Below the pieces are notes generated by a model, which saw only the letters and a list, made by a program, of their open reading frames with translations, made no database searches and had not been told where the DNA came from. This document shows, piece after piece, positions 992 through 35,086 of a stretch of DNA of 40,625 nucleotides. The first letter of the stretch is position 1; every line of letters starts with the position of its first letter. Location of the stretch: assembly GCA_041483175.1 (NCBI GenBank), contig JBGPFD010000002.1:1-40625 (forward strand). The letters run 5' to 3'. The translations under genes were made by a program, and so were the position numbers. The DNA is from Thermoanaerobaculia bacterium (GTDB taxonomy: Bacteria; Acidobacteriota; Thermoanaerobaculia; Gp7-AA8).

Positions 992-2329
992 CTAGCCCTT
1001 CCCCGGTTTCTCAATCTCCACCTTCGCCCCATCCTTCAGCTTCCGTGAAACCGCGGTGTAGCCCCCGGACACCACTTCATCGCCCGCCTTGATGCCCGTC
1101 TTGATCTCGATGAACGTGTTGTCGGCGATTCCGGTCTCCACTTTCTGCTGGCGGACTTTGTCGCCGGTGCGGACGAAGACCACGTGCTGCAGTTTCTCGC
1201 GCAACTCGCGCGCCTTCTGCCTTTCCAGCGTCTCGTTGGTGACGTCGGCGCGATTGTCGCGCTCGCGCGCCTGCTGCTGTGCTTTCTGTTTTTGCTGCTC
1301 CTCGGGCGAGAGCTTGCCGTCGCTCTCGCGGACGGTCACCGCCTGGATGGGAACAACGACCGCGTTCTGCACCGTCGCCGTCTCGATGTCCGCGGTGGCG
1401 CTCATGCCCGGGCGCAGCGGCATGGGAGGATTGGGGATGCTGATCTTCACCTGAAAGTTCGTCACTTCTTCCTGCGATCCGGCGTTGCGCGTGGTCGCCG
1501 TGCTGGCGATCTCGCGCACCACACCGCGGAAGACCCGATCGGGATAGGCGTCGACGTTGACCCGCACCGTGTCGCCCGTCTTCACGTTGACGATGTCGTT
1601 CTCGTTCACATTCACCTGCGCTTCCATGTGTTCGAGATTGGCGATGCGCATCACCTCGGTGCCGGCAAATTGGATCGTTCCCACCACGCGCTCGCCGACG
1701 CGGCTGGGCAGCGAGCTGATGGTGCCGTCGACCGGCGCGCCGATGACCGTCTTGGACAAGGCGTCGCTGGTCTGGCGCAACGCACCTTCGGCGCGTTGGG
1801 CGTCGAATTGCGACGTCTGCAGCGCGGCGTTGGCCATGTTGTACGTCGTCTCGGCGGCCTTCCGATCGGCATCCGAAAGCAGCCCCGTGTTGAACAGGCT
1901 CATGGCGCGCTTGTAGTCATTCTCCGCCTTGTCCACTTCGGCGCGATCGCGCACGATCGCCGCGCGCGAGGCGTTCAATGCGGCCCGCTGCGCCTCCACC
2001 TGCGCCTGGTAGACGTCCGGCTTGATCTTCAGCAGCAGGTCGCCTTTGTGCACCACCTGCCCTTCCTTCACCGGGATCTCGATGATCTCGCCCGAAACCT
2101 CGGGCGCGATCTTTACTTCTACTTCCGGCTGGATCTTTCCGGTCGCGGTGACCAGCTGCGTGATCGACTTGCGGAAGGCTTTGTCGGTGGTGATCGGAAT
2201 CCCCTTCTCGCGGCCCCGCGCAGCCACCGAGCCGATGATGATGGCGACGAGCAGCACACCCCCGCCGATCAGCCCGAAGAGCTTCTTTTTCGACCATTTT
2301 CGGTTGTTCGTTGCCATTGTTCGCCCCAT
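992..2329 (-). CDS. HlyD-family efflux periplasmic adaptor (MacA-like)
   Basis: 445-aa ORF with an N-terminal TM anchor (KKLFGLIGGGVLLVAIIIGSV). It has a biotinyl-lipoyl-like motif (GEIIEIPVKEGQVVHKGDLLLKI), coiled-coil hairpin segments and a C-terminal beta-barrel. A permease gene follows. Confidence 0.9.
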   Translation of the reverse strand: MGRTMATNNRKWSKKKLFGLIGGGVLLVAIIIGSVAARGREKGIPITTDKAFRKSITQLVTATGKIQPEVEVKIAPEVSGEIIEIPVKEGQVVHKGDLLLKIKPDVYQAQVEAQRAALNASRAAIVRDRAEVDKAENDYKRAMSLFNTGLLSDADRKAAETTYNMANAALQTSQFDAQRAEGALRQTSDALSKTVIGAPVDGTISSLPSRVGERVVGTIQFAGTEVMRIANLEHMEAQVNVNENDIVNVKTGDTVRVNVDAYPDRVFRGVVREIASTATTRNAGSQEEVTNFQVKISIPNPPMPLRPGMSATADIETATVQNAVVVPIQAVTVRESDGKLSPEEQQKQKAQQQARERDNRADVTNETLERQKARELREKLQHVVFVRTGDKVRQQKVETGIADNTFIEIKTGIKAGDEVVSGGYTAVSRKLKDGAKVEIEKPGKG

Positions 2330-2402
2330 TATGAACGGGGTGAACCGGAAAAAAGTTTCAAAAAACCCGAACGGAGGGCCAAAAAGGCGTGTTGTTACAG
2401 AT

Positions 2403-3020
2403 ATGAAGAACTCGTGGACCGGCGGCGAGGCCGCCCGACCCAGCGAGAATGCCGAGGAGAACCTTGCCGTGGCCGTCCACCGTCTGGAACCGGGAGCCTT
2501 CGAGCGGCTGATCGAGCGGTTCGAACGGGCGCTCTACGGCTACGCGCACGGCATCCTTCAGAACCCCTTCGACGCCCAGGAAGTGGTGCAGGACGCCATG
2601 ATGCGCGCCCATCGCGCCCTCACGCGGCAGTATGGCGAAGATCGCTGCGCGTCGCTGGCGCTGCGGCCCTGGCTGTTCCGGACGGTGCGCAACCTTTGCC
2701 TGAACAAACGCCGAGGGAAACGGAGTCAGCTCGAGCAGCCACTGTCGGATTTCGATGACGGCCGCATCGGGCCGTTCGTTCATCTGGAAGGATCGGACCT
2801 CGAACGGAAGCAGGAGATCGAGCTTCTGCGCCGCGCGATCGCGCTGCTCCCGGTGGAGGCCCGCGAGTTGATCATGCTGCGGTTCATGGAGGAAATGTCC
2901 TACGGCGAGATCGCCAGGACCATCGGAGCGACCGAGGCGTCGCTGCGCGGCAAAGTGTTCCGGTCGCTCAAGTTGCTTCGAGAGGCGCTGGAGAAAAAAG
3001 GGGTGGCTTATGCGGTGTAG
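2403..3020 (+). CDS. ECF-type RNA polymerase sigma-70 factor
   Basis: Internal ATG (MKNSWTGG...) of ORF 2022..3020. Region 2 reads ERALYGYAHGILQNPFDAQEVVQDAMMRAH. Region 4 reads LPVEARELIMLRFMEEMSYGEIARTIGATEASLRGKVFRSLKLLRE. About 205 aa, typical for ECF sigmas. Confidence 0.9.
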   Translation: MKNSWTGGEAARPSENAEENLAVAVHRLEPGAFERLIERFERALYGYAHGILQNPFDAQEVVQDAMMRAHRALTRQYGEDRCASLALRPWLFRTVRNLCLNKRRGKRSQLEQPLSDFDDGRIGPFVHLEGSDLERKQEIELLRRAIALLPVEARELIMLRFMEEMSYGEIARTIGATEASLRGKVFRSLKLLREALEKKGVAYAV

Positions 3021-3876
3021 AGCAGCACTGACGCGCGTCGATGCGCTGCGCACGGGGGAGCTCGATCAGGAAGAGCATCGAGAGGTGGAGACGCATCTGC
3101 AGAAGTGCCAGAGCTGCGGGGAGTCTGCGGAAGACGTCGGTCGTCTGGCGGAAGCGGTGAAGTCGCTTGCCGTTGCGCCACCGCGATCGATGCGCGAGTC
3201 GCTGCGGACGACTGATTTCTTCGATCGCGTCGACGACGTCTGGGTGGCATTTTCCGATCGCGCCATCCGGATGATCAGCGGGCGATCGCTCGACGATCTC
3301 CGCGCGCACTACGCAAAGCGCTACGGGCGCACGCTCGAGCGCGCGCCGATTCCCGAGCCGCTGCGCAGGCAGGTGGCCGCCGCTGTACAAGGCGAGGGAG
3401 TGGACAAGCCGGCCGTCGATTTCGGTGATGCGTCGGATCTGGAGACCAGCGTGCTGGAGATGCTGACCCGCATTCCGCGCGGCGAGGTGCGCAGCTACTC
3501 CTGGCTGGCACAGCAGGTCGGAAAGCCGCGCGCGGTCCGCGCCGTGGCCAATGTCGTCGCGCGGAACGCCGTGCCGTTCATCATTCCCTGCCATCGCGTC
3601 GTTCCCGCGGGCGGCGGCGTCGGCAAGTACGCCTATGGCAGCCGGATGAAACGGGAGCTGCTCGCACGCGAGGGCGTCGACGTCGACGCGCTCGACGCAT
3701 TGGCGAAGGAGCACATCCGCTTCATCGGCTCGCGCACGTCGAAGATCTACTGCTTCCCTACCTGCCGCGATGCGCGGCGGATTCGCGAGGAAAACCGCGT
3801 CCCTTTTCACCTGGCAGAGGAAGCGGCGCAGAAAGGATTCCGCCCGTGTCGACGATGCCAGCCGGCAGTGGCGTAG
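3010..3876 (+). CDS. zf-HC2 anti-sigma factor fused to a methylated-DNA-protein-cysteine methyltransferase domain and an Ada-type Zn finger
   Basis: The N-terminus has HLQKCQSC (H-x3-C-x2-C). The middle has RAVRAVANVVARNAVPFIIPCHRVV...YGSRMKRELLAREG (MGMT helix-turn-helix plus the PCHR active site). The C-terminus has YCFPTCR...GFRPCRRCQP (Cys4, Ada N-terminal type). It overlaps the sigma gene by 11 nt and has no TM segment. Confidence 0.8.
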   Translation: MRCRAALTRVDALRTGELDQEEHREVETHLQKCQSCGESAEDVGRLAEAVKSLAVAPPRSMRESLRTTDFFDRVDDVWVAFSDRAIRMISGRSLDDLRAHYAKRYGRTLERAPIPEPLRRQVAAAVQGEGVDKPAVDFGDASDLETSVLEMLTRIPRGEVRSYSWLAQQVGKPRAVRAVANVVARNAVPFIIPCHRVVPAGGGVGKYAYGSRMKRELLAREGVDVDALDALAKEHIRFIGSRTSKIYCFPTCRDARRIREENRVPFHLAEEAAQKGFRPCRRCQPAVA

Positions 3877-4619
3877 TGCAGCTTCCGCTATTCCGTGCAG
3901 GGGCGGCGGTCCTCGGCCGCCCGGCAGGCGAGGCGCCTGCCGCCACACCGGACGTGCACGCCATCTCGATTCCCGCGCGGGGTTTTACCGGCGACTTCTA
4001 CTTCACGCATCGCTACGCCGATCGCCTGTGGTTCGCCCTCGGCGACGTGGCCGGAAAGGGACTGCCGGCCGCCGTGATCATGGCCATGATTCAGGAGGAG
4101 CTGGAGCATCGGATCGAATCGTGCGCCGTCACGCGCTGCCATCCCTCCGCCACGATGCAGCGGCTGCAAACATTCCTGCGCCCGCTCGTGCCGCGTAATC
4201 GCTTTGCCACGGCCGTGATCGGCCATCTCTGCGACGACGGCACGCTGGAGATCGCCAACGCCGGCCACTGTTCGCCGCTGATCGTGCGCGCGAACGGGAT
4301 CGAGCGCGTCGGATCGACGGGTCCGGCTCTCGGTCCTATTCCGTCGGCGCAGTGGCGAACGTTCGCGACCACGCTGGCGCGCGGCGAAGCGCTGGTGCTC
4401 TACAGCGACGGCGTGCTCGAAGCGCGATCGCCCGACGGCGAGGAGTTCGGAGTCGAGCGCATCGAACAATCTCTCGATGGAGCACCGGCCAATAGAGAAC
4501 CGGGCAATGGAGCACCGGCTTCAGCCGGCACCATCGCCAAGAACATCCTCGCTGCCGTCAACAACCATGCCGCGGGCGCTCGCGAGGACGATCTGACGCT
4601 CGTCGTGGTGCGATTGTAG
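3846..4619 (+). CDS. PP2C-family serine phosphatase (SpoIIE/RsbU-like), stand-alone catalytic domain
   Basis: Motifs: GDFYF...ALGDVAGKGLPAAVIMAM...ATAVIGHL...ANAGHCSPLIV...LVLYSDGVLEA...EDDLTLVVVRL. The start is uncertain: ATG 3846, or GTG 3876 overlapping the upstream TAG. Confidence 0.85.
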   Translation: MSTMPAGSGVVQLPLFRAGAAVLGRPAGEAPAATPDVHAISIPARGFTGDFYFTHRYADRLWFALGDVAGKGLPAAVIMAMIQEELEHRIESCAVTRCHPSATMQRLQTFLRPLVPRNRFATAVIGHLCDDGTLEIANAGHCSPLIVRANGIERVGSTGPALGPIPSAQWRTFATTLARGEALVLYSDGVLEARSPDGEEFGVERIEQSLDGAPANREPGNGAPASAGTIAKNILAAVNNHAAGAREDDLTLVVVRL

Positions 4620-4653
4620 GGCCCGCCACCCCCGGCGGTCATACAATCGCGCG

Positions 4654-6432
4654 ATGCTGAAGGGCCTGCTGCCGCTGCTCGCGCTCCTTTGGGCCGCTGT
4701 TTTCGCACAGGCTCCCCTCCCGCCACCCCTCCCGTGGGAGGGAAAAAGCCGCGAGCTGATCGCCAGGCCGGACGACAAGTGGATCACCGTCGCGGAGAAG
4801 ACCGGCTTCCGGGCGACGCCGACGTATCTGCAGACGGTGGCCTATATCCGGCAGCTCACTCTCGCCGCGCCGGAGCTGCGGATGATTTCGCTCGGCCGTT
4901 CGGCGGAAGGGCGCGACATCTGGATGGTGGCGGCCTCGCGCGATCACCTCTTCACGCCGGAGACGCTGCAGCGGAGCGGCCGGCCGACGCTGTTCGTGCA
5001 GGCGGGCATCCACGCCGGCGAGATCGACGGCAAAGACGCCGGACTGATGTTCCTGCGCGGCCTCACGGTCGGCGGGCGATGGCGATCGCTGCTCGACCGG
5101 GCGAATTTTCTCTTCGTGCCGATCGTGAACGTCGACGGGCACGAGCGCACATCGCCATTCAACCGCATCAACCAGCGCGGCCCGGACGTGACCGGATGGC
5201 GCACGAACGCGCAAAACCTCAATCTGAACCGCGACTACATGAAGCTCGACACCGAGGAGATCCGCGCGATTGTCGCGGCGCTCGATCGATGGAAACCCGA
5301 CCTCGCCGTCGACATCCACGTGAGCGACGGCGCCGACTATCAGTACGACATCACGTATGGATGGAACTCCACTGGCTACTCGACGCAGGCCGTCCGCTGG
5401 ATGGACATGATGCTCGGCTCCGCACTGCACCGCGCTCTGGGCGCCATGGGGCACATCCCGGGGCCGCTGATCAACAACGACCCGGCGGAAGGGCTGACCA
5501 TGCCCAACCTCCTGCCGCGTTTCGCCACCGGCTATGGCGACATCCGGCATATGCCGTCGATGCTCGTCGAAACGCACGCGCTCAAGCCGTACAAGCAGCG
5601 CGTCCTCGGCACGCTCGTTCTTCTCGCCGCGACGCTCGAGACGCTCGGCCGCGAAGGGGTGGCCCTGAAGCGATCGATCATGAACGACTGCGAACAGCAC
5701 CTCGATCCTGTGCCGCTCGACTGGCGCGTCCCGAACGCAAGCGCGAATCCGGAGATGATGGACTTCCTCGCTGTCCAATCGCAGAAGGTGCCCTCGCCGA
5801 TCTCCGGCACGACACGCACGGAATACCTCGGGACACCGGTGACCAGGCGCATCGCCGTCTACCATCAGACCGAAGTGGCAACGTCCGTCCGGCGCGCAAA
5901 GGCGTACTGGATTCCCGCCGCCTGGAGCAAAATCGCCGACCGCCTGACGCTGCACGGAATCGCCGTCGAGCGGATCAGCGATCCGCGCGAGGTCAACGTC
6001 GATGTCTATCGATTGAAAGACCCGAAATTCGATCCCGAGCCGTTCGAAGGACACGTGCGCGTCTCCGCGAAGAGCGTGATGGAACATCGAAAGCAGCGCT
6101 ATCCGGCAGGCTCGTTCCGCGTCTCCACCGATCAGCCGCTCGGCGATCTGGTAACCGCGTTGCTCGAACCGTCGTCGCCCGACTCGTTCCTGCAGTGGGG
6201 TTTCTTTCACTCGATTTTTCAGCGCACGGAGTATGGCGAGAGCGCCATCGTTGAGCCGATGGCGGAGAAGATGCTGGCCGACAATCCGGCGTTGAAGCAG
6301 GAATTCGAGCAGCGGCTGGCAACCGACGAGGCGTTCCGCGCCAGCCCCGAGCAACGGCTCGATTTCTTCTACTTGCGCTCGCCATTTGCCGATGAGCAGT
6401 GGCAAGTTTATCCGGTCGCCCGCGAGCGATGA
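4654..6432 (+). CDS. Secreted M14-family zinc carboxypeptidase
   Basis: Signal peptide MLKGLLPLLALLWAAVFAQA. Zn and catalytic motifs GIHAGEIDG, NLNRDY and LVETH. Confidence 0.85.
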   Translation: MLKGLLPLLALLWAAVFAQAPLPPPLPWEGKSRELIARPDDKWITVAEKTGFRATPTYLQTVAYIRQLTLAAPELRMISLGRSAEGRDIWMVAASRDHLFTPETLQRSGRPTLFVQAGIHAGEIDGKDAGLMFLRGLTVGGRWRSLLDRANFLFVPIVNVDGHERTSPFNRINQRGPDVTGWRTNAQNLNLNRDYMKLDTEEIRAIVAALDRWKPDLAVDIHVSDGADYQYDITYGWNSTGYSTQAVRWMDMMLGSALHRALGAMGHIPGPLINNDPAEGLTMPNLLPRFATGYGDIRHMPSMLVETHALKPYKQRVLGTLVLLAATLETLGREGVALKRSIMNDCEQHLDPVPLDWRVPNASANPEMMDFLAVQSQKVPSPISGTTRTEYLGTPVTRRIAVYHQTEVATSVRRAKAYWIPAAWSKIADRLTLHGIAVERISDPREVNVDVYRLKDPKFDPEPFEGHVRVSAKSVMEHRKQRYPAGSFRVSTDQPLGDLVTALLEPSSPDSFLQWGFFHSIFQRTEYGESAIVEPMAEKMLADNPALKQEFEQRLATDEAFRASPEQRLDFFYLRSPFADEQWQVYPVARER

Positions 6433-6456
6433 CATGAGCCGCGGATTCCGCCTTCG

Positions 6457-6515
6457 GAGTGTGGCGGCGGGCGTCCCCGCCCCCCGGGCGCGCGAGGACG
6501 CGCGTCCCTACACGC
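6457..6515. repeat. GC-rich REP-like element (GGAGTGT head, two internal hairpins), copy A
   Basis: The sequence is cggagtgtggcggcgggcgtccccgccccccgggcgcgcgaggacgcgcgtccctacacg. It is nearly identical to the copy at 12797-12856, in the same orientation. Confidence 0.85.
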
Positions 6516-6553
6516 CATGCCGATCCCGGGGTTCGGCACGGCGCAGCCGTGCC

Positions 6554-6662
6554 CTACTCGCGCTCGCCATTTGCCGATGAGCAGTGGCGCGTTTATCCGG
6601 TCGCCCGCGAGGCGGATTCCGTTCGGATTTCGCGGGGTCTAGTCCTGTCTGTAACTTACTGA
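6554..6662 (+). pseudogene. Duplicated 3-prime end of the M14 carboxypeptidase gene (orphan C-terminal fragment)
   Basis: 6554-6611 repeats 6370-6426 with about 3 mismatches. It translates to YSRSPFADEQWRVYPVARE..., versus YLRSPFADEQWQVYPVARE in the intact gene. Confidence 0.7.
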
Positions 6663-7485
6663 AAATCCAATACTTTCAAAACGCTCGTAGTGCCAGAAAA
6701 TGCCCGTGGGCACACGTATTCCACACACGAACTACTGCCCCCGAACTCTTTTTAACAGCCAGATGTCTCGAAGGATCGCGTCGCCTATCCCGGCCTCCAA
6801 CATCCTCGCCTCGAAGTAGTCGCCCACTTCTAGTTTGATGAAACCATCACAGACTTGCGGGACTTTCACGACATGGAAGTGGCCAATGGCGACGGATGGC
6901 TGCTAGCTGCTCGGCATCGATACGAATACTTACGACGGTTGGGAGATAAACCGTCGGCAGCTGAGACTGAAGCACATGCCGGCGGCATTCAAGTTCCTCC
7001 GCTTCAGCTGGCTACCATAGTGTCGGAGAGTCTTTTTGTTGGAGCCCGAGCAACCATGTGCCAGTCCGCAGAGAAACGCTACGACATCGTCGTATATCGG
7101 CAGCTCAACCCGACACCGTGTCTCCCGATCCTTGACCACGCGCCTGACATGAACGCAGGCCGCGCCGCGGCCCTCCAGCGTTTCTACTCGATCGTCGCCT
7201 TGAACGGGAACGGCTGCCGCGACCGCGTCGCGTTGCAAGGTACCAGTTTTGTCAGACACTTTCCGATTCTGATTACTTAAGAGATGTCCGTCCATGAAGA
7301 CAAGTCATAGACTTCACCAAAACGCACTACTATTATTTTTCAACGTCACTCCGCATACCTTCTCCCAGCAATGCATGTGGTCGATAGAGACGGGCCGACA
7401 GTTCACCTGTCTATTTTTTCTGGTACCCACCACGTTGACCAGACAGCCGCTCTTGTCCGACGGGTAGAACATCGGACTGCGCCGC

Positions 7486-8046
7486 TTGATGACGGGAAGG
7501 CGCAAGATTGCCGCCGCTGGTCCGGTGCGGATTGCCTCCGGCGGCCGCCGCGTCGTGAGCTGCTCGCGGCTAACCGAATGGATGCTGACGGTGAGCACGC
7601 TTCCGGCCAGCGCATGCGGTCCCGGTCCAGAAGCCGTCGCTGTCGTCACCCTCCAAACGGGCGCAAGTGCCTCGGTATCGTCATCGGCGTCGTCGCTCGC
7701 CGTCAATGGGAGCGCGGCGCTCAGCGTCGCTGTTGCGAACGCGTCGATCTGGTCTTTGCCATCCTCCTTGGGCAACACTCTTGTACCGTCCTTCGGCACG
7801 ACCGACGACGCAACCGTGACGTACACCGGCTTCGGCGTGGGCACCGACACGATAACTTTGACCGCGAGCGGATTGTGCGGTCCGGCGCAACGGAGCATCA
7901 CCATCACCGTGACATCAGCAGCGCCACCGCCGCCGTCCGGCGGCTACCTCCGGTGCTGCGACGGGACGCTCTCGCCGACGTGCACGAGCTGCGCGAACAA
8001 GCATGGGTGCTGCTCACACCACGGCGGCGTCTGCGGATGCCTCTAG
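7486..8046 (+). CDS. Ig-like (Big-type) domain protein with a Cys-rich DUF3761-like C-terminal tail; possibly 5-prime truncated
   Basis: ATVTYTGFGVGTDTITLTASGLCGPAQRSITITVT resembles a bacterial Ig-like strand pattern. The tail RCCDGTLSPTCTSCANKHGCCSHHGGVCGC matches the C-x-DGT...G-x-CSHHGGV signature. It has a TTG start and no convincing signal peptide. Confidence 0.5.
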   Translation: MMTGRRKIAAAGPVRIASGGRRVVSCSRLTEWMLTVSTLPASACGPGPEAVAVVTLQTGASASVSSSASSLAVNGSAALSVAVANASIWSLPSSLGNTLVPSFGTTDDATVTYTGFGVGTDTITLTASGLCGPAQRSITITVTSAAPPPPSGGYLRCCDGTLSPTCTSCANKHGCCSHHGGVCGCL

Positions 8047-8335
8047 AGTGTTTCGGCTCTTCGAGTCGTGCTTCGCTGAGCCAGTTCATCAGGAACTCGG
8101 CGCGTCGTCGTAGCTCCTCGACTTCCCAGCGCAGTCGGTGTGTCGATCAGCATCTGTGACTTGGTCGCGTGGTGCGTCGCGCAGCGCGTCTTCCATGGTG
8201 GTGATCTCGTGCTGGATGAGTTCGAGGCTGCGCAGGAGTTGGGCGATCGTGCTTTTCTTGGGCACGTCGTGAGTTTAACAGTGTTGATGACTTCAACCGA
8301 TCGGCGCGCCGCAAAGTCACGAGTCGCTCCCGCCG

Positions 8336-8389
8336 AACGAGAAGGATCTCAAGATGCGGTACCGCATGCGGTCTTGAGATCCTTCGTTG
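8336..8389 (-). terminator. Nested palindromic hairpin downstream of gene 8395..9228
   Basis: 14-bp perfect stem gaaggatctcaaga / tcttgagatccttc. The loop itself contains the 12-nt palindrome tgcggtaccgca. The U-tract is weak. Confidence 0.5.
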
Positions 8390-8394
8390 ACAGC

Positions 8395-9228
8395 CTAGGG
8401 GCTCTGCGACGCCGACACTTGCACACCAGAGCTCGGCAACTGTCCATTCGCGACAACTGCGGCATAGGTCAGACTTGGCTGGCTGACCGTCACGACTGCA
8501 TACGCGAGTCGGTTGAGACCATTGGGACCATTGAAGGCAAGCGTGCAGTCGACCGGAGCGGTGGCGGCTAACAAGCTTCCGAATTGTTGCATTACATCTG
8601 GTGCCACTGTGACTCTCCTGGTATCGACTAGCGCTCCATCACAGGCACGCCGAATCTCGATGACGGACGACGCGACATCGCTTCCCCCGTTGTAGATGCC
8701 CACATTGATGTGGCCATCGACGTCGCCGAGCGTCAGTCCGGTCAAGACCTGCTGTTGGCCCGCGGGCACTAACGAGGTCAATACAGGCATCCTCGCTTTC
8801 CCATACTGCTGGTTCACAACAACCGGTACGGGGCAGAACGCATTTGTGACTCCTATAAACAGCTCTGAATCGACTGAGAGACCCGAAGGAACATCGAGAT
8901 GATAAACCCAAAGAGGATCGTGGCTGCCCGGCTGCCAAGTCGTTTTCTGGCGAATCGACGCTGCTTGGCCTGCGGGGACGACAAAGCTATCCGGAATTCC
9001 GGATGGGAGTCCGCCGTTGGACACTCCGAGCAGATGTACCGTTAAATCGGTTGCCGTCAGATTGTAGAAAACCGTATCCGCAGTCCAAATCAGCGCGCCA
9101 CACGCACTATCTGGCAATCGCGCTCCTAAGGCGCTCAAGTCGATGACGTACAAGCTGTCACCCTGTGCGCCTGCGCATAAAGCAAAGACCGCGACGACAG
9201 CCAGACCACGATGGATAAGAGTCTTCAT
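8395..9228 (-). CDS. Secreted hypothetical protein
   Basis: 277-aa ORF with signal peptide MKTLIHRGLAVVAVFALCAGAQG. It is in tandem with, and 9 nt downstream of, the BNR-like gene. I recognise no family. Confidence 0.7.
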   Translation of the reverse strand: MKTLIHRGLAVVAVFALCAGAQGDSLYVIDLSALGARLPDSACGALIWTADTVFYNLTATDLTVHLLGVSNGGLPSGIPDSFVVPAGQAASIRQKTTWQPGSHDPLWVYHLDVPSGLSVDSELFIGVTNAFCPVPVVVNQQYGKARMPVLTSLVPAGQQQVLTGLTLGDVDGHINVGIYNGGSDVASSVIEIRRACDGALVDTRRVTVAPDVMQQFGSLLAATAPVDCTLAFNGPNGLNRLAYAVVTVSQPSLTYAAVVANGQLPSSGVQVSASQSP

Positions 9229-9237
9229 TGACGTTTC

Positions 9238-10884
9238 CTAGTAGCCAATGCGCGATAGCCAGATGTCGAACGTCCCGGCACTTATTCCCACCCATGATGA
9301 GGTTGCCTTTTCGCCACCGCTAAAGGGCCAGTCCCAGACATCTTGATAGTCGCCGATGAAGGAATTGAGTGGAGGAGTGGAATCGAATCGACTAAGGTCC
9401 TGATCTGTGGCGTCGATACGAGTACCCGTGGGGGTCAGGTAGGCCTCGTAAGTCCGGTAGCTCGTATTCGTGTTGTCGGCATGACGGTCATAATATGTGA
9501 TCACCACGTTACCCAGCGTGTTGAAGTCGATCGCAGGCATAAATTGATCATTTGCTGTGAACTGCACGCCGGTCGTCGGAGTCGACGACACCCGATGCCA
9601 ACCGGATGTGTCCCGATAGGCGTACAGGATGTCTGTCCCGCTCGTTCCGTCCGCGTGCCACGTTAGAATAATCTTGCTCGGATTCGTATACCAATCGAAT
9701 CTTGCCATGGGTGCGGTCTCGGCGCGAAGGCCCGGGCTCCCCCCCGGCGGGATGCTGCCAATGTGCACGCCGGTGCCGGCGATTTCATGAGCACCAAAGC
9801 CCGCGCCGAAGTTTGTGGAAGCGGCCATCTGAATATTGCGTGCTCCGAAGTCGACCCAGAGTACGTACACCGTGCCCGTGCCAGGGTCGACGACGATTTG
9901 CGGGTTCGCGAGACCGTTGTTGTTCTGCGGGGTCGGCAACGGTCCGTAGGCGACCACTGTCTTCTGAGGGAAAGTAGCGCCGCGGTTAGTGCTCAAAGCG
10001 ACAACGATGGCGCTATTCGAATTCACGTAGTCCTGGCTGACATAGGCCAGGTACACGTAGCCTAGATCGCCACCATTGTGAAGCGAGACAGCGATCGCCG
10101 GCTTATCCAGGAAATATCCTGACGGCCTCGAATCGGCGATGGCCGGATTGGCAGTCCAATACCCGTTATCAGTCATATCCGAATGCCAAACGCCGATTGC
10201 ATTAGGATAGTTTTGCGGATTCCTGAGATCATTATTGTTATATACGAGTCCGGCGCAGTACCTGCGAAGAGCCGCGATTCCACCGGGATAGGGGTTCTCG
10301 CTCATAAGCGGGTCGCCGCTAACGTTGTATCCCAGCGGGATTGGCATCGAACCGCGGATAAAGAGTGAAAAGTCTGTCGTACTTGCGTAATGAATGCGAG
10401 GCGTATTAGAGTCCTCGTATTTAATATAGCTCGTAACTGTCCGATCCAGCGGCGTCCCACCCGGGTTTTCGTTAATCGTGATCACCGACGGTTCCACATC
10501 TTGAAGCGGGTCCGACGTGGCATTGACCTCCGAAAGGAATATCGCATCGGGCGTTGGCTTCAGGATTCTTACACCCACCTCAGCGTGCCCTAGAGAACTC
10601 AGTCCGAGAACCGGAGCCGAAGACGTACCAGTCGCGTGTTGCAGTGACCTGAAAATGCCGTAATACACGACGCCGCTAAGATGGCTGTTTCTCAACGTTT
10701 CAAGAGCGAAGGATGGAACGCGCACTCCACCTTGTGGCGGAGGCACCGGGAGTGGATCGGGAGCGGGTGGGACTGCGGGCTGCAACCGGTCCGGAGGAAT
10801 CGGTGGCGGCGTCGCAGCAAAGACGGCCCGGGCGGCGAATGTTAGTGCTAGGGCGAGAGTTAATAACAACATGAGTCTTCTCAT
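9238..10884 (-). CDS. Secreted sialidase/BNR-like beta-propeller protein (degenerate Asp-boxes)
   Basis: 548 aa with signal peptide MRRLMLLLTLALALTFAARAVFA. Asp-box-like motifs: LSTNRGATF and ASTNFGAGF. The function call is weak. Confidence 0.6.
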   Translation of the reverse strand: MRRLMLLLTLALALTFAARAVFAATPPPIPPDRLQPAVPPAPDPLPVPPPQGGVRVPSFALETLRNSHLSGVVYYGIFRSLQHATGTSSAPVLGLSSLGHAEVGVRILKPTPDAIFLSEVNATSDPLQDVEPSVITINENPGGTPLDRTVTSYIKYEDSNTPRIHYASTTDFSLFIRGSMPIPLGYNVSGDPLMSENPYPGGIAALRRYCAGLVYNNNDLRNPQNYPNAIGVWHSDMTDNGYWTANPAIADSRPSGYFLDKPAIAVSLHNGGDLGYVYLAYVSQDYVNSNSAIVVALSTNRGATFPQKTVVAYGPLPTPQNNNGLANPQIVVDPGTGTVYVLWVDFGARNIQMAASTNFGAGFGAHEIAGTGVHIGSIPPGGSPGLRAETAPMARFDWYTNPSKIILTWHADGTSGTDILYAYRDTSGWHRVSSTPTTGVQFTANDQFMPAIDFNTLGNVVITYYDRHADNTNTSYRTYEAYLTPTGTRIDATDQDLSRFDSTPPLNSFIGDYQDVWDWPFSGGEKATSSWVGISAGTFDIWLSRIGY

Positions 10885-11198
10885 TACTGGTTGTCCTTCC
10901 TGATGGAGGTTTCCAGGTAAACTGCGGCACCTCTTTCATAAGGAGCAAAAGGGGGCGCGCCGGTTAGAGTCAGGCTGTATGTCGCAGTTTGGGGAGGGCC
11001 TCCGCAGCTGATGGTTTAAATAATGGAAGTAAGGGTGGTCCTCATGAGGTACACCTTTATTGTCGGTCTACCAGAGGACGCCTGTCTACTGGCATTTTGT
11101 CGCATACGCTCGGTACCGTCACACCAATCACCAAGGTTCGCGAAGCGCGCTGGAAAGATAGCTGGCCAGAGAGAACCACGCCGAGTGACTTGTCATTT

Positions 11199-11690
11199 TT
11201 ACGAGGTGCGCCTCTGGCGGTAGGCGTCCGGCGTCGTTCCCGTGGCTCGGCGGAACGCGCGATGAAAAGAACGTTCGCTTCTGAATTCGGCCTGAGCGCC
11301 GATCCTGGCGACCCTGAGGTTGGTCGTGTCCAAGAGGTATTTTACGTGGTCTATGAGCCGTCGCCGGAGATAGCTGCCGATTGCTTGCCGGCGCTCGTGA
11401 TGGAATGTCAGTGTCAGGGTGGATCTGCTTATCCCAAGCCGTTTCGCGAGTTCGTCGACCTGCGGTCGTTCATGTCGTGCGAAGCAAAAAGCCAGGTAGT
11501 CCTCGATAGCACTGAGGACTATCTGCGAATTTGCAGCGTTGTCGTGTCCAGCGGCTGAGGGGCAGCCGCGTTTCGATCTCTCTAGTCGCTGTGTGGGACG
11601 CCGGAGCACGGAGAAACCCTTGGGAAGTAGTGATTCGGAGACCACTTTTGCTACCCTCCACACCTTGCCCAGCGTCACGATTTCCGTCAC
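11199..11690 (-). CDS. AraC-family transcriptional regulator (short, essentially the DNA-binding domain only)
   Basis: Dual HTH: VDELAKRLGISRSTLTLTF...YLRRRLIDHVKYLL...RVARIGAQAEFRSERSFHRAFRRATGTTPDAYR. The start is uncertain. Confidence 0.8.
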   Translation of the reverse strand: MTEIVTLGKVWRVAKVVSESLLPKGFSVLRRPTQRLERSKRGCPSAAGHDNAANSQIVLSAIEDYLAFCFARHERPQVDELAKRLGISRSTLTLTFHHERRQAIGSYLRRRLIDHVKYLLDTTNLRVARIGAQAEFRSERSFHRAFRRATGTTPDAYRQRRTS

Positions 11691-12060
11691 GGAAACCGAG
11701 TCTCGATCTGTAATCTACTGAGCCGCCAAGCCGTTAGAGGAGAACTGGCGCGTGATCGCCTTGCATCCGAGGCTTGCTTTTGCGGCAGGCGCCGACCGCA
11801 TACTCTCGATGATGAGTTTCCCCGACTGTCAGAGCTTCGCTTAGGGGGCGCCCTTTCCACTTTTCTGCAGTGCTGTGCGTCCGTCGTCTGGATACGTCAT
11901 CTCGAAGAAAGCCTTCACCGACGGGAACAGACATACAAATTCTTTCGGCGCTGGGGGTAGCACTTTGCTCTTCCCGGTCACTACTTCCTGAAAGGCTCGT
12001 GGTAGGGAAGTGGGTCATTCCGTCACTCCTCCTACTAAACATCCTTTCAAGGGAGGACTC

Positions 12061-14848: not shown

Positions 14849-15502
14849 CTAATGATCCCCTTTGTCCATGAACAACTGCTCGTAGGCCTCACGTGAGGCC
14901 GTGTCCGCATCGATCTCGCCCCGGCGCGCCTGCGTGCGGCAGAACGACGGTTCGCGATCGGTGATCACCGTAATGGAGCTGGCACGGAGAAGATCCTTCG
15001 ACGGCCACATTCCGCGGATCTCCAGCAGGTCGCCCGGCTTGAGCGAGCTGACCCACACCCGCCCGTTCAGCCCGTAGGCTGCCTTGGCGTCGACGCGCAG
15101 GTAGCGCTGCTGCGGCAGGCGGAGGGAGAAGAATTCCGTCTTCGCCTCGCGCACGGCGAAGCGGCCGACCACCGTGCGATGCGAGCGGAAAATCGAATCG
15201 ACCAGCGCGTCATCGACGCGCATGGTGACCTCGATCGATTGCGCCACCAGGTGTGTACCCCGGCCCCGCACGGCGAACAGATGCACGCGGTCGCCGGGAC
15301 GGAGATCCGCGCGATCGAACGCAAGGCCGCGGAAGGTGATTGCGCCGCGCTCCAGGGCCACCCGCACGCGCGGGCCGGCGTCGCTGCCGACGATCAGCCG
15401 GTCGACGCCGCGGTTCATGCGACAGACCGTCCCGTCAATGGTGATCGGCAGCGCGGGAAGCGCGGAAAGAGCGAGCAGCAGCGACAGCGTGAATCGTTTC
15501 AT
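14849..15502 (-). CDS. Secreted hypothetical protein
   Basis: 217 aa with signal peptide MKRFTLSLLLALSALPALP. There are two internally similar segments (PGDRVHLFAVRG... and PGDLLEIRGMW...). I cannot assign a family. Confidence 0.65.
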   Translation of the reverse strand: MKRFTLSLLLALSALPALPITIDGTVCRMNRGVDRLIVGSDAGPRVRVALERGAITFRGLAFDRADLRPGDRVHLFAVRGRGTHLVAQSIEVTMRVDDALVDSIFRSHRTVVGRFAVREAKTEFFSLRLPQQRYLRVDAKAAYGLNGRVWVSSLKPGDLLEIRGMWPSKDLLRASSITVITDREPSFCRTQARRGEIDADTASREAYEQLFMDKGDH

Positions 15503-16179
15503 GGCAGATAACGTCTCGTGGGAACGCCTTCCGCCTTGTCGATGCTCAACTGCGCGAGGGTCTGCGTCAGGTGCCGGCCTTCTTCGTCCGCGTTCTGATA
15601 GGTCTGGCAGAGGAGATCGACGTAGTGGGGGGCCACTTCGGCGGAGATGGTAAACCCGTTCGGAGGCTGTTCAGGGCGCGTGGTCTCCGTGCGGCGCCAC
15701 TTGCCGTCGGTCAGCTCGCACCGCCGGTAGCGATCGCCTTTGCCTTCGATGTACGCGTAGGGACCGAGGGGTGGAATGCCGCGGGCGTTGGACTTCTGTT
15801 CCTCGAGCGCGCGGATGACATACGAGGCGATCATCTCCCGGAGCGAGCGGTGGGAATGGCCGATCGTCTCGGTGATTTTCAGGCCGGACTGATAGAAGCT
15901 TTTGTCGCCGGGCGATTTGGCAAACGAATAGAGCGTGCAGCGCACGACCGCGCAGACCACGCGGATGTCCAAGCCGTTCCACTCAAAAATCAGCTCGTGT
16001 TCGGATCCGGGCCCGAAGCGCGCCTCGCTGATGACACGCGCGCCGTTGAGCGAAACATCGATCAGCCGCACCGGCACGTCGCGCATATGCGCGGCGATCG
16101 GCGCGTCGAGATGGATGCGATGAAACTGGCGGCGCTCCTCCGGCCGGTCACTTCCTATGGCCACTGCATCCCTCTGCAT
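15499..16179 (-). CDS. PilZ-domain protein with a conserved uncharacterised C-terminal domain (paralogue 1)
   Basis: Internal ATG (MQRDAVAIG...) of ORF 15499..16341. PilZ motifs RQFHR (RxxxR) and DVSLNGA (D-x-S-x-x-G). The C-terminal half closely matches 17501..18166. Confidence 0.8.
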   Translation of the reverse strand: MQRDAVAIGSDRPEERRQFHRIHLDAPIAAHMRDVPVRLIDVSLNGARVISEARFGPGSEHELIFEWNGLDIRVVCAVVRCTLYSFAKSPGDKSFYQSGLKITETIGHSHRSLREMIASYVIRALEEQKSNARGIPPLGPYAYIEGKGDRYRRCELTDGKWRRTETTRPEQPPNGFTISAEVAPHYVDLLCQTYQNADEEGRHLTQTLAQLSIDKAEGVPTRRYLP

Positions 16180-16227
16180 TGACACGCAGTTCTGAAAGTA
16201 TACGTCTTCCCCCGTTACACTGTTTTC

Positions 16228-17544
16228 GTGGCCAACCTTGCCCGTCGCCTCGGCGTTTTCGACGCCACGATGATTGTCATGGGCGGCATTATCGGTTCGG
16301 GAATCTTCATCAACCCGTACGTGGTCGCGCAGCAAGTGCATTCGTCACTGCTGATTGTGGGCGCGTGGGCGCTCGGCGGCCTGATTGCCCTGCTCGGCGC
16401 GTTCGTCTATGCGGAGCTCGCCGCGCTGCGGCCGGAGGTCGGAGGTCAGTATGCGTACCTTCGCGATGCCTATCATCCGGCGGTCGCCTTTCTCTATGGA
16501 TGGGCGCTCCTGCTGGTCGTGCAGACGGGTGGGATGGCGGCGGTGGCCGCCACCTTCGGGAAGTATTTCGTCGAGCTGACCGGCACCTCGATCTACGACG
16601 CGGCCATCGCCGTGGGCGCTCTCGTCCTGCTGACGGCCATCAACTGCATGGGCGTGCGCGGCGGAAGCAACACCCAGAGCGCGCTGATGCTGCTCAAGCT
16701 GGCGGCCATTGCGGCGCTGATCGTCGCCGGCTTTTCGTTCCGTGGTGCGCCGCCGCCCGCGGCCGTCCATGCAACCGAGCGCGACACGCTGCTCCGATTC
16801 GGCGCGGCCATGACGCCGGTGATGTTCGCCTACGGCGGGTGGCAGACGGCGAGCTTCATTTCCGGGGAACTGAAACGGCCGCGGCGCGATCTGGCCATCG
16901 GGCTGCTGCTCGGCGTGGCCGGCGTGATCATCGTCTACGTGCTGGTCAACGTCGTCTGCGTCCGCGTCCTCGGGCCGGCGGGACTGGCGGCGACGACGAC
17001 ACCCGCATCGGCAGTCATGCGCGCAGCGCTCGGCGAGCGCGGCGCGAGGCTGATCGCCGTCGGCATTACCGTCTCCACGCTCGGATTTCTCAGCCAGAGC
17101 ATGCTCACCGCGCCGCGCGTGTACTACGCCATGGCCGCCGACGGCGTGTTCTTCCGCCAGGTGGCGCGCATCAGCGCGAAGACCCAGGTGCCGGTGGTGG
17201 CCATCGCACTGCAGGGAGTGGTGGCCATCATCATCACGCTGTCCGGAACGTACGAGCAGATCCTGAGCTACGTCGTCTGCGTCGATTTCATCTTCTTCGG
17301 CCTGACCGGGCTCGCGCTGTTCGTGTTCCGCCGCCGCCTCCCGCCCGCCCCCTTCCGCACCCCCGGCCACCCGGGCACCACCGCGGTGTTCGTAATTGCC
17401 TGCTGGTCTGTAGTAGCAGCTACTATAGCGCGCAACCCAGGCGACAGCGCGATCGGTCTGATGATCCTGCTGGCGGGCCTGCCGGCCTACGCCTGGTGGG
17501 TCAGGGGACGTACCGCCGCGTCGGAACCCCTTCCGCCTTGTTGA
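16228..17544 (+). CDS. APC-superfamily amino acid permease
   Basis: 438 aa, about 12 predicted TM helices. The N-terminal motif is LGVFDATMIVMGGIIGSGIFINP. Confidence 0.9.
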   Translation: MANLARRLGVFDATMIVMGGIIGSGIFINPYVVAQQVHSSLLIVGAWALGGLIALLGAFVYAELAALRPEVGGQYAYLRDAYHPAVAFLYGWALLLVVQTGGMAAVAATFGKYFVELTGTSIYDAAIAVGALVLLTAINCMGVRGGSNTQSALMLLKLAAIAALIVAGFSFRGAPPPAAVHATERDTLLRFGAAMTPVMFAYGGWQTASFISGELKRPRRDLAIGLLLGVAGVIIVYVLVNVVCVRVLGPAGLAATTTPASAVMRAALGERGARLIAVGITVSTLGFLSQSMLTAPRVYYAMAADGVFFRQVARISAKTQVPVVAIALQGVVAIIITLSGTYEQILSYVVCVDFIFFGLTGLALFVFRRRLPPAPFRTPGHPGTTAVFVIACWSVVAATIARNPGDSAIGLMILLAGLPAYAWWVRGRTAASEPLPPC

Positions 17545-18166
17545 TGCTGAGCTCCGCCAGGATGCGCGTCAGCCGGCGCCCCTCGCCGTCGGTCCTTTCG
17601 TACGTCTCGCACAGCATGTCGAGGTAGCGCGGAGGCACCTCGGCCGAGACGGTGAAGCCGCTTATAGGCTGCTCGGGGCGGGTGGTGGCGCTTATCCGCC
17701 ATTTGCCGTCGACCAGCTCGCAACGGCGATACCGGCCGCTCTTTCCCTCGAGGTGGACGTAGGGGCCGATCGGAGGCACGCCGTCCCAGTTTGCCCGCTG
17801 CTCGTCGAGTGCCTTCGTGACGTAGTAGCCGATCAGCTCGCGCATGATGCGATCGGAATCGCCGGTGGTCTCGACGATCCGAACGCCGATTTCGTAGGTG
17901 CTTTGCTCGTTCGACCCGGTGGCGAAGTTCTGCAGCGTGCAGCGGGTGACGGTGCACTTCAGCAGCATGGGCTTCCCTTCCCAATCGACGCGAAGGTCCT
18001 GGGCCGAGCCGGGGGTGACGCGCAATGTGCCCAAGAACCGCGCACCGCCGATGGCCAGGTCCAGCACCTGAACCCGCTGTTTGCCAAGCGTGCCGGAAAT
18101 GGGATGCTCGAAATGGATGCGCTCGAACTGGCGCTGCACCTCGGAAAATTCGCGCCGGGTAGCCAC
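17501..18166 (-). CDS. PilZ-domain protein with a conserved uncharacterised C-terminal domain (paralogue 2)
   Basis: GTG start. RQFER (RxxxR) and DLAIGGA (the Ser of D-x-S-x-x-G is replaced by Ala). The C-terminus GVPPIGPYVHLEGKSGRYRRCELVDGKWR...KAEGVPTRRYVP parallels paralogue 1. Confidence 0.8.
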   Translation of the reverse strand: MATRREFSEVQRQFERIHFEHPISGTLGKQRVQVLDLAIGGARFLGTLRVTPGSAQDLRVDWEGKPMLLKCTVTRCTLQNFATGSNEQSTYEIGVRIVETTGDSDRIMRELIGYYVTKALDEQRANWDGVPPIGPYVHLEGKSGRYRRCELVDGKWRISATTRPEQPISGFTVSAEVPPRYLDMLCETYERTDGEGRRLTRILAELSINKAEGVPTRRYVP

Positions 18167-27121: not shown

Positions 27122-27247
27122 GACGACGGCATCTACGCGCAGTTCGGGCGCGACCCTGATCTGATCGAAAACTTCACCACGGCGGCATTCGAGAAGGTCT
27201 ACGGGCGTTTCGGAGTGCAGAAGCTCAACAGCAGGATCGATTCGTGA
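27122..27247 (+). pseudogene. Orphan 3-prime gene fragment (41 codons) abutting the right end of the IS
   Basis: The open frame is DDGIYAQFGRDPDLIENFTTAAFEKVYGRFGVQKLNSRIDS-stop. Its TGA overlaps the GTG start of the next gene (GTGA). It has no start codon or upstream part. Confidence 0.55.
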
Positions 27248-28326: not shown

Positions 28327-28328
28327 TG

Positions 28329-28381
28329 GTGTAGCGGCGGGCGTCTCGCCCGCCGGCGGCCGGGGACGGCCGCCGCTACAC
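28329..28381. repeat. GC-rich REP-like element (GTGTAGCGGCGG ... CCGCCGCTACAC closing stem around two 8-bp hairpins)
   Basis: The sequence is gtgtagcggcgggcgtctcgcccgccggcggccggggacggccgccgctacac. It sits inside the cluster, between the rSAM and GT genes. Confidence 0.85.
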
Positions 28382-28388
28382 TTATCCG

Positions 28389-32741: not shown

Positions 32742-32795
32742 GACGTAGGGCCGGCTCTTAGCCGGCCCAAGCCGCCTGAGAGGCGGCTCTACGTC
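32742..32795. repeat. Two-hairpin REP-like unit closed by a GACGTAG/CTACGTC stem
   Basis: The sequence is gacgtagggccggctcttagccggcccaagccgcctgagaggcggctctacgtc. The closing stem supplies the dinB stop codon. Confidence 0.85.
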
Positions 32796-33847: not shown

Positions 33848-33862
33848 TGGCGCAACCTCGAG

Positions 33863-33941
33863 GAATGCAGAACGCAGAATGCAGAATGCAGAATTGAGAA
33901 CCAGGTTATTTTCTTCATTCTAAATTCTGCGTTCTGCGTTC
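33863..33941. repeat. AT-rich dyad array of 7-bp GAAY-N3 units in the dinB divergent promoter gap
   Basis: The sequence is gaatgca gaacgca gaatgca gaatgca gaattga gaaccag / gttattttcttc / attctaa attctgc gttctgc gttc. It ends at the ATG of the next gene. Confidence 0.85.
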
Positions 33942-35030: not shown

Positions 35031-35086
35031 TCGGGCATCCATCCCGAGCCGGCCGCCACACTTCCGCGCTACACTGCCTCCGGTTC

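Follow-up and report, generated by a model that had tools for sequence, protein, structure and literature searches.

The window, the whole 40,625-nt stretch of contig JBGPFD010000002.1 (Thermoanaerobaculia bacterium, assembly GCA_041483175.1) that was analysed, carries on its forward (+) strand an operon headed by an ECF sigma factor gene. An ECF-type promoter motif (CCGAAC-N15-CGTGTT, 2367-2393, +), identified by its match to a sequence conserved among related loci, is followed by the sigma gene (205 aa, 2403-3020, +), the gene of a fusion protein with anti-sigma, O6-alkylguanine-DNA alkyltransferase (MGMT) and Ada-type zinc domains (288 aa, ATG start, 3010-3876, +), and a SpoIIE/PP2C-type Ser/Thr phosphatase gene (3846-4619, +; Pfam SpoIIE, 137.5 bits). 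The sigma ORF extends from an ATG at 2403 to a stop codon at 3018-3020, so that it shares 11 nt (3010-3020) with the fusion gene, as the first-pass annotation had noted, and the two genes are translationally coupled. The PP2C gene, for which GTG 3846, ATG 3855 and GTG 3876 are candidate starts, is likewise translationally coupled to the anti-sigma gene. A terminator scan of 2200-6900 gave no convincing candidate inside the operon, and an Rfam scan of the whole window gave 0 matches.

The sigma factor is recognised by Pfam Sigma70_r2 (46 bits) and Sigma70_r4_2 (39.8 bits) and by the NCBIfam model TIGR02937 (sigma70-ECF, 85.6 bits). Its closest solved structures in the PDB are those of generic ECFs (AlgU, RpoE, SigH, SigE and SigW), which assign it to no group. 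ECF206, a group rich in Acidobacteria, was considered as a home for this sigma and rejected, since its members are paired with membrane zinc anti-sigma factors and lack MGMT. The window's relatives belong to the Thermoanaerobaculia/Acidobacteriota, and the sigma is 82-91% identical to the window copy in six related loci (L001-L006) and 60% identical in a seventh (L007). An ECF sigma gene lies immediately 5' of the fusion-type gene in every locus with sufficient upstream DNA (L001-L014 and L018-L020), and the two genes overlap in most loci.

The first-pass annotation had read the 288-aa protein, from short motifs (HLQKCQSC, IIPCHRVV, YCFPTCR and GFRPCRRCQP), as a zf-HC2 anti-sigma module joined to an MGMT-like module and an Ada-type Cys4 site, and had proposed a domain search as a check. 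The motifs are all present in the ORF at 3010-3876, and the search recovers the three Pfam domains above their gathering cut-offs: zf-HC2 at residues 3-36 (25.0 bits, cut-off 22.2), DNA_binding_1 at residues 145-223 (95.8 bits, cut-off 27) and Ada_Zn_binding at residues 238-285 (48.7 bits, cut-off 23). The protein is cytoplasmic, and the earlier reading that it has no TM segment is borne out by a maximum 19-residue Kyte-Doolittle mean of 1.23, reached within the MGMT core. The same three-domain layout recurs in more than 100 clusters of proteins of 281-296 aa with 63-82% identity, the mean identity by domain being 67% for the anti-sigma domain, 69% for MGMT-N, 78% for MGMT-C and 80% for AdaZn. 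With this length and layout shared by over 100 independent homologues, a chance ORF and an assembly or fusion artefact were both rejected. An AF2 model of the fusion protein has a mean pLDDT of 79.5 and a pTM of 0.60.

By motif, profile, fold and sigma adjacency, residues 1-65 (3010-3204, +) are a predicted class I zinc-binding anti-sigma domain. The zinc ligands C3, H29, C33 and C36 (an H-x3-C-x2-C motif with an upstream fourth ligand) are invariant in 119 homologues, as well as in sets of 30 and 22 aligned members. A profile of the 22 N-termini, searched against solved structures, matches RsiW (5wuq, E = 8.4e-9, residues 1-69), RslA (3hug, 4.1e-5), DdvA (8rlz, 4.7e-5) and ChrR (2q1z, 2e-3); the RsiW, RslA and ChrR domains were solved in complex with their sigmas. 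In the AF2 model the domain consists of helices 3-15, 20-32, 34-53 and 59-65, of which the first two are probably one broken helix, and a low-pLDDT linker at 55-61, within which the segment P57-P58-R59-S60 is nearly invariant. The modelled three-helix bundle, with its fourth helix after the linker, has the arrangement that characterises class I anti-sigma domains. For the zinc-finger form found in the window, these features indicate that the putative anti-sigma factor is the MGMT protein itself.

The zinc site could also be the sensor. In this reading, the zinc-thiolate site would respond to thiol oxidation or attack by electrophiles, as in RsrA, and the MGMT and Ada domains would be repair cargo or a DNA tether. 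The C-x25-H-x3-C-x2-C spacing presumably matches that of RsrA in an alignment, and the four ligands are the sole invariant N-terminal residues across the 22 diverse representatives. The fusion-locus promoter also appears to resemble the SigR/SigH type (GGAA-N17-18-GTT). The match to the RsrA equivalog TIGR03988 (NCBIfam antisig_RsrA) is weak, however, at 21.5 bits where the cut-off is 62.5, and RsiW, the best structural relative by sequence, is reported to use its zinc structurally. In addition, the zinc ligands have been lost in about 75 clusters of relatives that retain the promoter, the PCHR motif and the Cys4 site, with the sigma gene adjacent in each of the four clusters inspected for gene context. 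We consider zinc-site sensing unlikely. Since sigma, promoter, PCHR and Cys4 all persist in the zinc-less relatives, the alkyl-acceptor module is the part that is conserved beside the sigma.

In many relatives the N-terminus consists of a short segment only, as in the zinc-less forms of L008-L011, which raises a different alternative: that the N-terminal domain no longer binds sigma and that the protein is a plain repair enzyme under an ECF sigma regulated in some other way, as ECF122 and ECF203 are now read. Against this, members of the window's clade begin with a complete zinc anti-sigma domain, in which the ligands are invariant, the mean identity is 67% and the profile match to RsiW spans residues 1-69; even the short forms align to about residues 45-75 of the anti-sigma domain, and the sigma gene is overlapped in most loci. 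Loss of sigma binding appears highly improbable.

The central part of the fusion, residues 69-225 (3214-3684, +), is a two-domain MGMT/Ogt module. It scores 89.2 bits with TIGR00589 (ogt, cut-off 46.4) and matches whole MGMT chains in Foldseek over 156-176 columns, with a TM-score on the target of 0.61-0.72 (38 MGMT-type matches, E <= 0.001). The Pfam family Methyltransf_1N was undetected in the fusion by sequence, and the presence of the N-terminal alpha/beta domain of MGMT is predicted from the fold match. In an alignment to human AGT (1eh6/1yfh), residues Y163, R177, N186, H195, Y207 and E221 fall on human Y114, R128, N137, H146, Y158 and E172, which are established catalytic-network and DNA-binding residues; alignment to AGT and the C-terminal part of Ada (Ada-C) likewise places C194 and R196 on catalytic or DNA-binding positions. 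None of the residues Y163, R177, N186, P193-C194-H195-R196, Y207 and E221 varies among 119 homologues, and in a set clustered at 50%, 118 of the 119 aligned representatives have the acceptor cysteine (Cys194 in the window, codon 3589-3591, +). The module is intact in its catalytic residues. An inactive, ATL-type copy was rejected because the acceptor cysteine and catalytic network are present, which agrees with the earlier reading of the PCHR motif.

The C-terminal part, residues 238-286 (3721-3867, +), is an Ada N-terminal-type Cys4 zinc site. Phmmer aligns residues 240-286 with residues 30-75 of N-Ada (1adn/1u8b), and Foldseek superposes the site on 1u8b over 51 columns with an rmsd of 1.3 A and 47% identity. 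C248, C252, C280 and C283, all invariant in the 119 homologues, fall on Ada C38, C42, C69 and C72, so that C248 (codon 3751-3753, +) is aligned with the methyl acceptor Cys38. The acceptor cysteines of MGMT and Ada each serve for a single turnover; alkylation makes human MGMT unstable and leads to its degradation, and methylation of Ada Cys38 is a regulatory switch.

Since 9 nt lie between the end of the promoter motif and the sigma ATG, the transcript probably has little or no leader and is under autoregulation. The window and L001-L007 have kept the DNA 5' of the sigma gene in common despite differing flanking genes, and the exact motif occurs once in each of these loci. No second exact copy is present in the 40-kb window, and a scan of the window allowing 2 mismatches gave 5 matches against 9.8 expected, which is of no use for tracing a regulon. 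Across phyla, a looser regular expression proved too noisy and was replaced by a strict pattern (TGCAAC/NCGAAC-N15-16-G[TGA]GTT), which has 21 matches against 1.8 expected in 199 kb of loci; 15 of the 21 lie directly 5' of the sigma gene or its operon. In other phyla, the same promoter is found 5' of stand-alone ogt genes in two loci (L013 and L020), and in L009 it heads an operon of oxygenase (PF09859, a DNA-demethylation oxygenase), sigma and MGMT genes, with tag nearby. The pairing of sigma with an MGMT-AdaZn module is kept across Acidobacteriota, Chloroflexota, Eremiobacterota and Actinobacteriota, where the module is always preceded by one ECF-type promoter, TGCAAC/CGAAC-N15-16-GKGTT.

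The conserved PP2C gene downstream was overlooked in the first-pass annotation. In L001-L007 the gene recurs and again overlaps the anti-sigma gene, even where anti-sigma identity falls to 45%. The phosphatase is thus the conserved partner in this clade, which points to an extra or alternative phospho-input. A true anti-sigma factor might thus respond to another input, through PP2C-linked phosphorylation and dephosphorylation or through regulated proteolysis, with the MGMT and Ada domains confined to repair and supplied in step with sigma activity. Besides the retention of the overlapping PP2C gene throughout the Thermoanaerobaculia clade, the nearly invariant P57-P58-R59-S60 in the flexible linker fits such an input, and there is a precedent in RseA of M. 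tuberculosis, a zinc anti-sigma factor that is degraded upon phosphorylation. The phosphatase is nevertheless absent from the module in the other phyla examined: it gave no tblastn match in L008-L011, and the genes downstream in L013 and L018 are others. The operon moreover contains no kinase or STAS partner, and the constant fusion to alkyl-acceptor domains would be left unexplained. Control by a phospho-input or proteolysis in place of alkylation therefore seems quite unlikely.

The reading that we favour, by a modest margin over even, is that the locus encodes an adaptive response to DNA alkylation that is self-contained and built on an ECF sigma. In this proposed scheme, the autoregulated promoter at 2367-2393 would drive the sigma, the anti-sigma/repair fusion and the PP2C phosphatase, and in the resting state the N-terminal zinc anti-sigma domain (residues 1-65) would hold the sigma while the MGMT domain and the Ada-type zinc site patrol DNA. 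Cys194 would irreversibly accept alkyl groups from O6-alkylguanine, and Cys248 those from methylphosphotriesters. The spent, alkylated protein would then lose its hold on the sigma, likely through destabilisation and proteolysis, or through a conformational or DNA-locking change. The freed sigma would transcribe its own operon and supply fresh, unalkylated protein, which would repair more damage and re-sequester the sigma once the damage is cleared. In other phyla, the same sigma family would also drive ogt and the PF09859 oxygenase.

Sigma binding, alkyl transfer and the coupling of alkylation to release are what we infer from the gene order, overlaps, domains, intact residues, conserved promoter and cross-phylum linkage to repair genes described above. 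A role as a suicide sensor fits the conservation, from phylum to phylum, of the sigma/MGMT-AdaZn pair with its promoter, and the placement of that promoter 5' of ogt and the PF09859 gene as well; these comparative data are consistent with release of the sigma upon alkyl transfer, which is plausible. Conservation of PCHR and Cys4 is also expected of a plain repair enzyme, which counts against the favoured reading. Also counting against it, no alkylation-repair gene besides the fusion was found near the operon in the window's clade, the 40 kb hold no second copy of the promoter, and the partner conserved in this clade is a PP2C phosphatase.

In a more general form, the signal would be given when a DNA lesion is irreversibly taken over by the anti-sigma factor, a suicide acceptor that is consumed one-for-one by O6-alkylguanine and methylphosphotriester damage and resynthesised by the sigma that it frees. 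The same proposal would also explain ECF122, ECF203 and the cross-phylum family with TGCAAC-N15-16-GKGTT promoters, and would make this a second, independently built alkylation response alongside Ada; for this wider claim we regard the chances as evenly balanced. If true, covalent and irreversible lesion transfer would be a new type of signal for ECF anti-sigma factors. The system lends itself to direct tests, being made up of a defined promoter and no more than two or three proteins that are small and soluble, with C194, C248 and the C3/H29/C33/C36 site as targets for mutation.

A literature search on ECF/anti-sigma systems and DNA alkylation yielded nothing beyond the ECF classification and a single review. 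In their group descriptions, ECF122 and ECF203 are recorded from Actinobacteria only, with an O6-methylguanine DNA methyltransferase at +1 (Casas-Pastor et al. 2021; review PMC8999054) and, in ECF203, an Ada_Zn_binding domain too (Casas-Pastor et al. 2021). The classification lists 'no putative anti-sigma factor' for either group and gives the mechanism as 'unknown', which accords with the reading that the N-terminal domain does not bind sigma; its authors suggest a link to DNA repair. The novelty implied by the first-pass annotation thus holds in part: the ECF/MGMT adjacency was already catalogued for Actinobacteria, no described group with a known non-alkylation signal was found, and what the window locus adds is the zinc anti-sigma domain on the MGMT-AdaZn protein. 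The likeness of the window locus to ECF122 and ECF203 rests on the content of the neighbouring genes, the MGMT at +1 being common to all. The ECF122 promoter (CTCAC-Xn-CGTCTAC) differs from that of the window (CGAAC-N15-CGTGTT), and the neighbours of ECF203 include TetR and MFS genes, neither of which is found in the window's operon. The window locus further differs in its Acidobacteriota host, its explicit zinc anti-sigma domain and its PP2C partner, and it offers a concrete anti-sigma candidate for both groups.

With the class I zinc anti-sigma factors RsiW, RslA, ChrR and RsrA, the fusion has in common the C/H-x-H-x3-C-x2-C site, the helical domain and a gene located directly 3' of, and overlapping, the ECF sigma gene; with RsrA in particular, whose equivalog score it falls short of, it shares the ligand spacing only. 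Where other members have a transmembrane or extracytoplasmic domain, a cupin (ChrR) or nothing (RsrA), the fusion carries DNA-repair suicide domains. Stand-alone Ogt/MGMT enzymes have the same two-domain fold and all of the catalytic and DNA-binding residues, whereas in the fusion this core is flanked at either end by additional regulatory or zinc domains.

The Ada protein of E. coli, the textbook case of a repair protein made into a regulator by damage, combines a PCHR acceptor cysteine and a Cys4 methylphosphotriester site in one polypeptide, as does the fusion, and its autoregulated, stoichiometric, single-use mode of action is likened here to that of the fusion. Ada has an AraC-type HTH between its zinc and MGMT domains, while the fusion lacks one (no Pfam match to HTH_18 or HTH_AraC) and has the reverse domain order, ASD-MGMT-Zn, with ASD being the anti-sigma domain. 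The fusion reaches 101 bits, in two stretches, with the Ada equivalog NF011964, far under the cut-off of 345. It is not an Ada orthologue and may nevertheless work like Ada, with an output that differs: Ada activates promoters directly, whereas the fusion is proposed to release a sigma. If this is true, the sigma/anti-sigma version would follow the same chemical logic on a different transcriptional chassis.

The fusion gene (3010-3876, plus strand, start ATG) encodes a 288-aa protein in which the first-pass annotation recognised an anti-sigma domain, an MGMT-type alkyltransferase and an Ada-type zinc site, from motifs that are found in the DNA of this ORF. All three domains score above their curated Pfam cut-offs: zf-HC2 (residues 3-36, 25.0 bits, cut-off 22.2), DNA_binding_1 (residues 145-223, 95.8 bits, cut-off 27) and Ada_Zn_binding (residues 238-285, 48.7 bits, cut-off 23). 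The NCBIfam ogt superfamily model also matches the protein (89.2 bits), and two stretches match the NCBIfam Ada equivalog with a score far under its cut-off. The reported absence of a membrane segment holds, since the highest hydropathy mean over 19 residues is 1.23, within the MGMT core. The same layout occurs in more than 100 homologue clusters (281-296 aa, 63-82% identity) and conservation is similar across all domains, so the protein is neither a spurious ORF nor a fusion created by assembly.

In the N-terminal domain, C3, H29, C33 and C36 are the sole invariant residues among 22 diverse zinc-finger-type representatives. The N-terminal profile matches RsiW (E = 8.4e-9, residues 1-69) and also RslA, DdvA and ChrR, anti-sigma domains solved with their sigmas. 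An AlphaFold2 model (mean pLDDT 79.5) contains helices at 3-15, 20-32 and 34-53, then 59-65, with a low-confidence linker (55-61); the predicted helix arrangement is the class I anti-sigma pattern. When the MGMT part is aligned with human AGT and Ada-C, Y163, R177, N186, C194, H195, R196, Y207 and E221 fall on the established functional positions of these enzymes (tyrosine, arginine finger, Asn hinge, acceptor Cys and His/Glu network), and these show no variation among 119 homologues. The N-terminal MGMT domain is present despite the lack of a match to its Pfam model, because Foldseek aligns whole MGMT chains over 156-176 columns (38 MGMT-type matches, E <= 0.001). In the zinc site, C248, C252, C280 and C283 align with Ada C38, C42, C69 and C72, and methylated N-Ada (1u8b) fits the model with an rmsd of 1.3 Å. 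Unlike Ada, the fusion protein has no AraC-type HTH in a Pfam scan and is therefore not an Ada orthologue. Four homologous proteins (P0201, P0219, P0239 and P0240) have an HCCC pattern, where His replaces the first Cys (the Cys38-equivalent methyl acceptor); such sites could keep zinc while losing the nucleophile.

The ECF sigma gene (2403-3020) overlaps the start of the fusion gene by 11 nt, in agreement with the earlier annotation. Directly before its ATG is a promoter motif, CCGAAC-N15-CGTGTT (2367-2393), which is kept in seven related loci with differing flanking genes. Between the end of the conserved -10-like element and the ATG there are 9 nt, and 2367-2402 shows no Shine-Dalgarno sequence, suggesting a sigma mRNA with little or no leader; the same geometry is found in L001-L007, L011 and L020. 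The best-supported reading, which we consider somewhat more probable than its alternatives combined, is an autoregulated sigma/anti-sigma loop, in which the anti-sigma factor doubles as a single-use alkyl acceptor and the sigma is freed on alkylation. Alkyl transfer to C194 and/or C248 would inactivate the anti-sigma factor, which may be destabilised and proteolysed, change its conformation, or bind DNA more tightly. Alkylated human MGMT is destabilised and proteolysed, and methylation of N-Ada tightens its DNA binding. The freed sigma would then transcribe its own operon, yielding fresh unalkylated protein that would repair DNA and re-sequester the sigma. The interpretation of the first-pass annotation is partly supported: the architecture that it described is verified, and the mechanism that it proposed is plausible. 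Anatomy, conservation, linkage and promoter are observed; we infer sigma binding, alkyl transfer and release.

The stop codon of the anti-sigma gene is overlapped by a SpoIIE/PP2C phosphatase gene (3846-4619, plus strand), followed by an M14 peptidase gene, while a divergent HlyD-type efflux adaptor gene lies upstream of the module. The phosphatase appears active, with the metal-binding motifs GDVAGKG, YSDG and DDLT. Its gene is retained throughout the Thermoanaerobaculia clade (L001-L007 included). A different input to the anti-sigma factor, for example via this phosphatase, is doubtful: modules examined in other phyla lack the gene, and there is no kinase or STAS partner near it.

An ECF sigma gene is directly upstream of the fusion-type gene in all 11 genome loci found. 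L001-L007 are from Thermoanaerobaculia/Acidobacteriota, and L008 (Chloroflexota), L009 (Vulcanimicrobiaceae), L010 (Acidimicrobiaceae) and L011 encode MGMT-AdaZn proteins with a short N-terminus lacking zinc ligands. The adjacency recurs in further members of both types (L012, L013/L014, L018/L019 and L020). An exhaustive search of representatives gives 89 clusters at E <= 1e-30. Among the 121 clusters of at least 200 aa in the best 150 listed, 13 full clusters combine zinc finger, PCHR and Cys4, and 75 have PCHR and Cys4 without the zinc finger; the acceptor Cys is kept in 118 of 119 aligned sequences from this set. The zinc-finger ligands are missing from most relatives (at 50% identity about 75 clusters, including L008-L011, L018-L020 and proteins P0137-P0190), and ECF sigma genes precede them in 4/4 clusters with context examined. 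Their N-terminus is reduced to a short L..L...AP..L..V segment; the short forms align to query residues about 45-75 (the end of helix 3 and helix 4) and look like truncated anti-sigma domains. An RsrA-like redox or electrophile sensor at the zinc site, with the repair domains as cargo, is accordingly unlikely, though the least so of the alternatives: the zinc-less relatives keep everything else, which is the main argument for the alkyl-acceptor module, rather than the zinc finger, as the conserved sensor. It is improbable that the anti-sigma domain is vestigial and the protein merely a sigma-controlled repair enzyme.

The promoter pattern TGCAAC (or NCGAAC)-N15-16-G[TGA]GTT has 21 matches in 199 kb (window and loci), compared to 1.8 in shuffles, and 15 of the 21 stand immediately before the sigma gene or the operon containing it; every lineage, L010 included, is represented. 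Stand-alone ogt genes adjoining the module are preceded by the motif in L013 (2874-2900) and L020 (4766-4791, minus strand). In L009 the motif leads an operon of PF09859 oxygenase (described in Pfam as acting on methylated damaged DNA), sigma and MGMT-AdaZn, with a tag glycosylase gene nearby; in L008 a PF09859 oxygenase gene lies downstream. The specificity of this sigma family is therefore conserved, and the family, which appears autoregulated, is linked to alkylation repair in several phyla. In L011, a second, divergent copy (5067-5093, minus strand) faces a gene for a 338-aa protein with no Pfam match (4021-5037, minus strand), which may be an extra regulon member. The window also encodes a DinB-type polymerase IV (32789-33847, minus strand), before which no copy of the motif occurs within 2 mismatches.

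Elsewhere in the window, a 58-nt direct repeat (6369-6426 and 6554-6611, 95% identical) places a second copy of the M14 peptidase gene's 3' end 185 nt further downstream, at the left boundary of a stretch with lower GC (about 6500-12000, GC 52-60% versus 63% overall) and a weak codon-position GC signal. This region, a possible acquired island, has genes for two proteins without a Pfam match that are probably secreted (9238-10884, 548 aa; 8395-9228, 277 aa) and for an AraC-type regulator (11199-11690), all on the minus strand. Radical SAM, GT4 glycosyltransferase and radical SAM/SPASM genes cluster at 27244-30367, possibly for peptide or glycan modification, and are followed by a gene for a 397-aa protein with no Pfam match (30465-31658). 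In regions 15499-18166 and 32789-38143, c-di-GMP signalling is indicated by two proteins with PilZ domains and by a large 7TM-PAS-GGDEF-EAL protein (34325-38143).

Adjacency of ECF sigma and MGMT genes is already known from two actinobacterial groups in the ECF reclassification supplement (Casas-Pastor et al. 2021): ECF122, with MGMT at +1 and 'no putative AS factors', and ECF203, with MGMT at +1 plus Ada_Zn_binding, 'no putative AS factor', and TetR and MFS neighbours. ECF122 is placed under 'unknown mechanism' in a 2022 review (PMC8999054). By their description, these groups share MGMT at +1 with the window, and the short forms probably correspond to their 'no anti-sigma' cases. Full-text searches found no other literature linking anti-sigma or ECF factors with alkyltransferases or alkylation damage. 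Within the literature searched, the following have no earlier description: the explicit zinc anti-sigma domain fused to MGMT-AdaZn, the module outside Actinobacteria, the promoter common to the loci, and the proposal that the anti-sigma factor is the MGMT protein itself.
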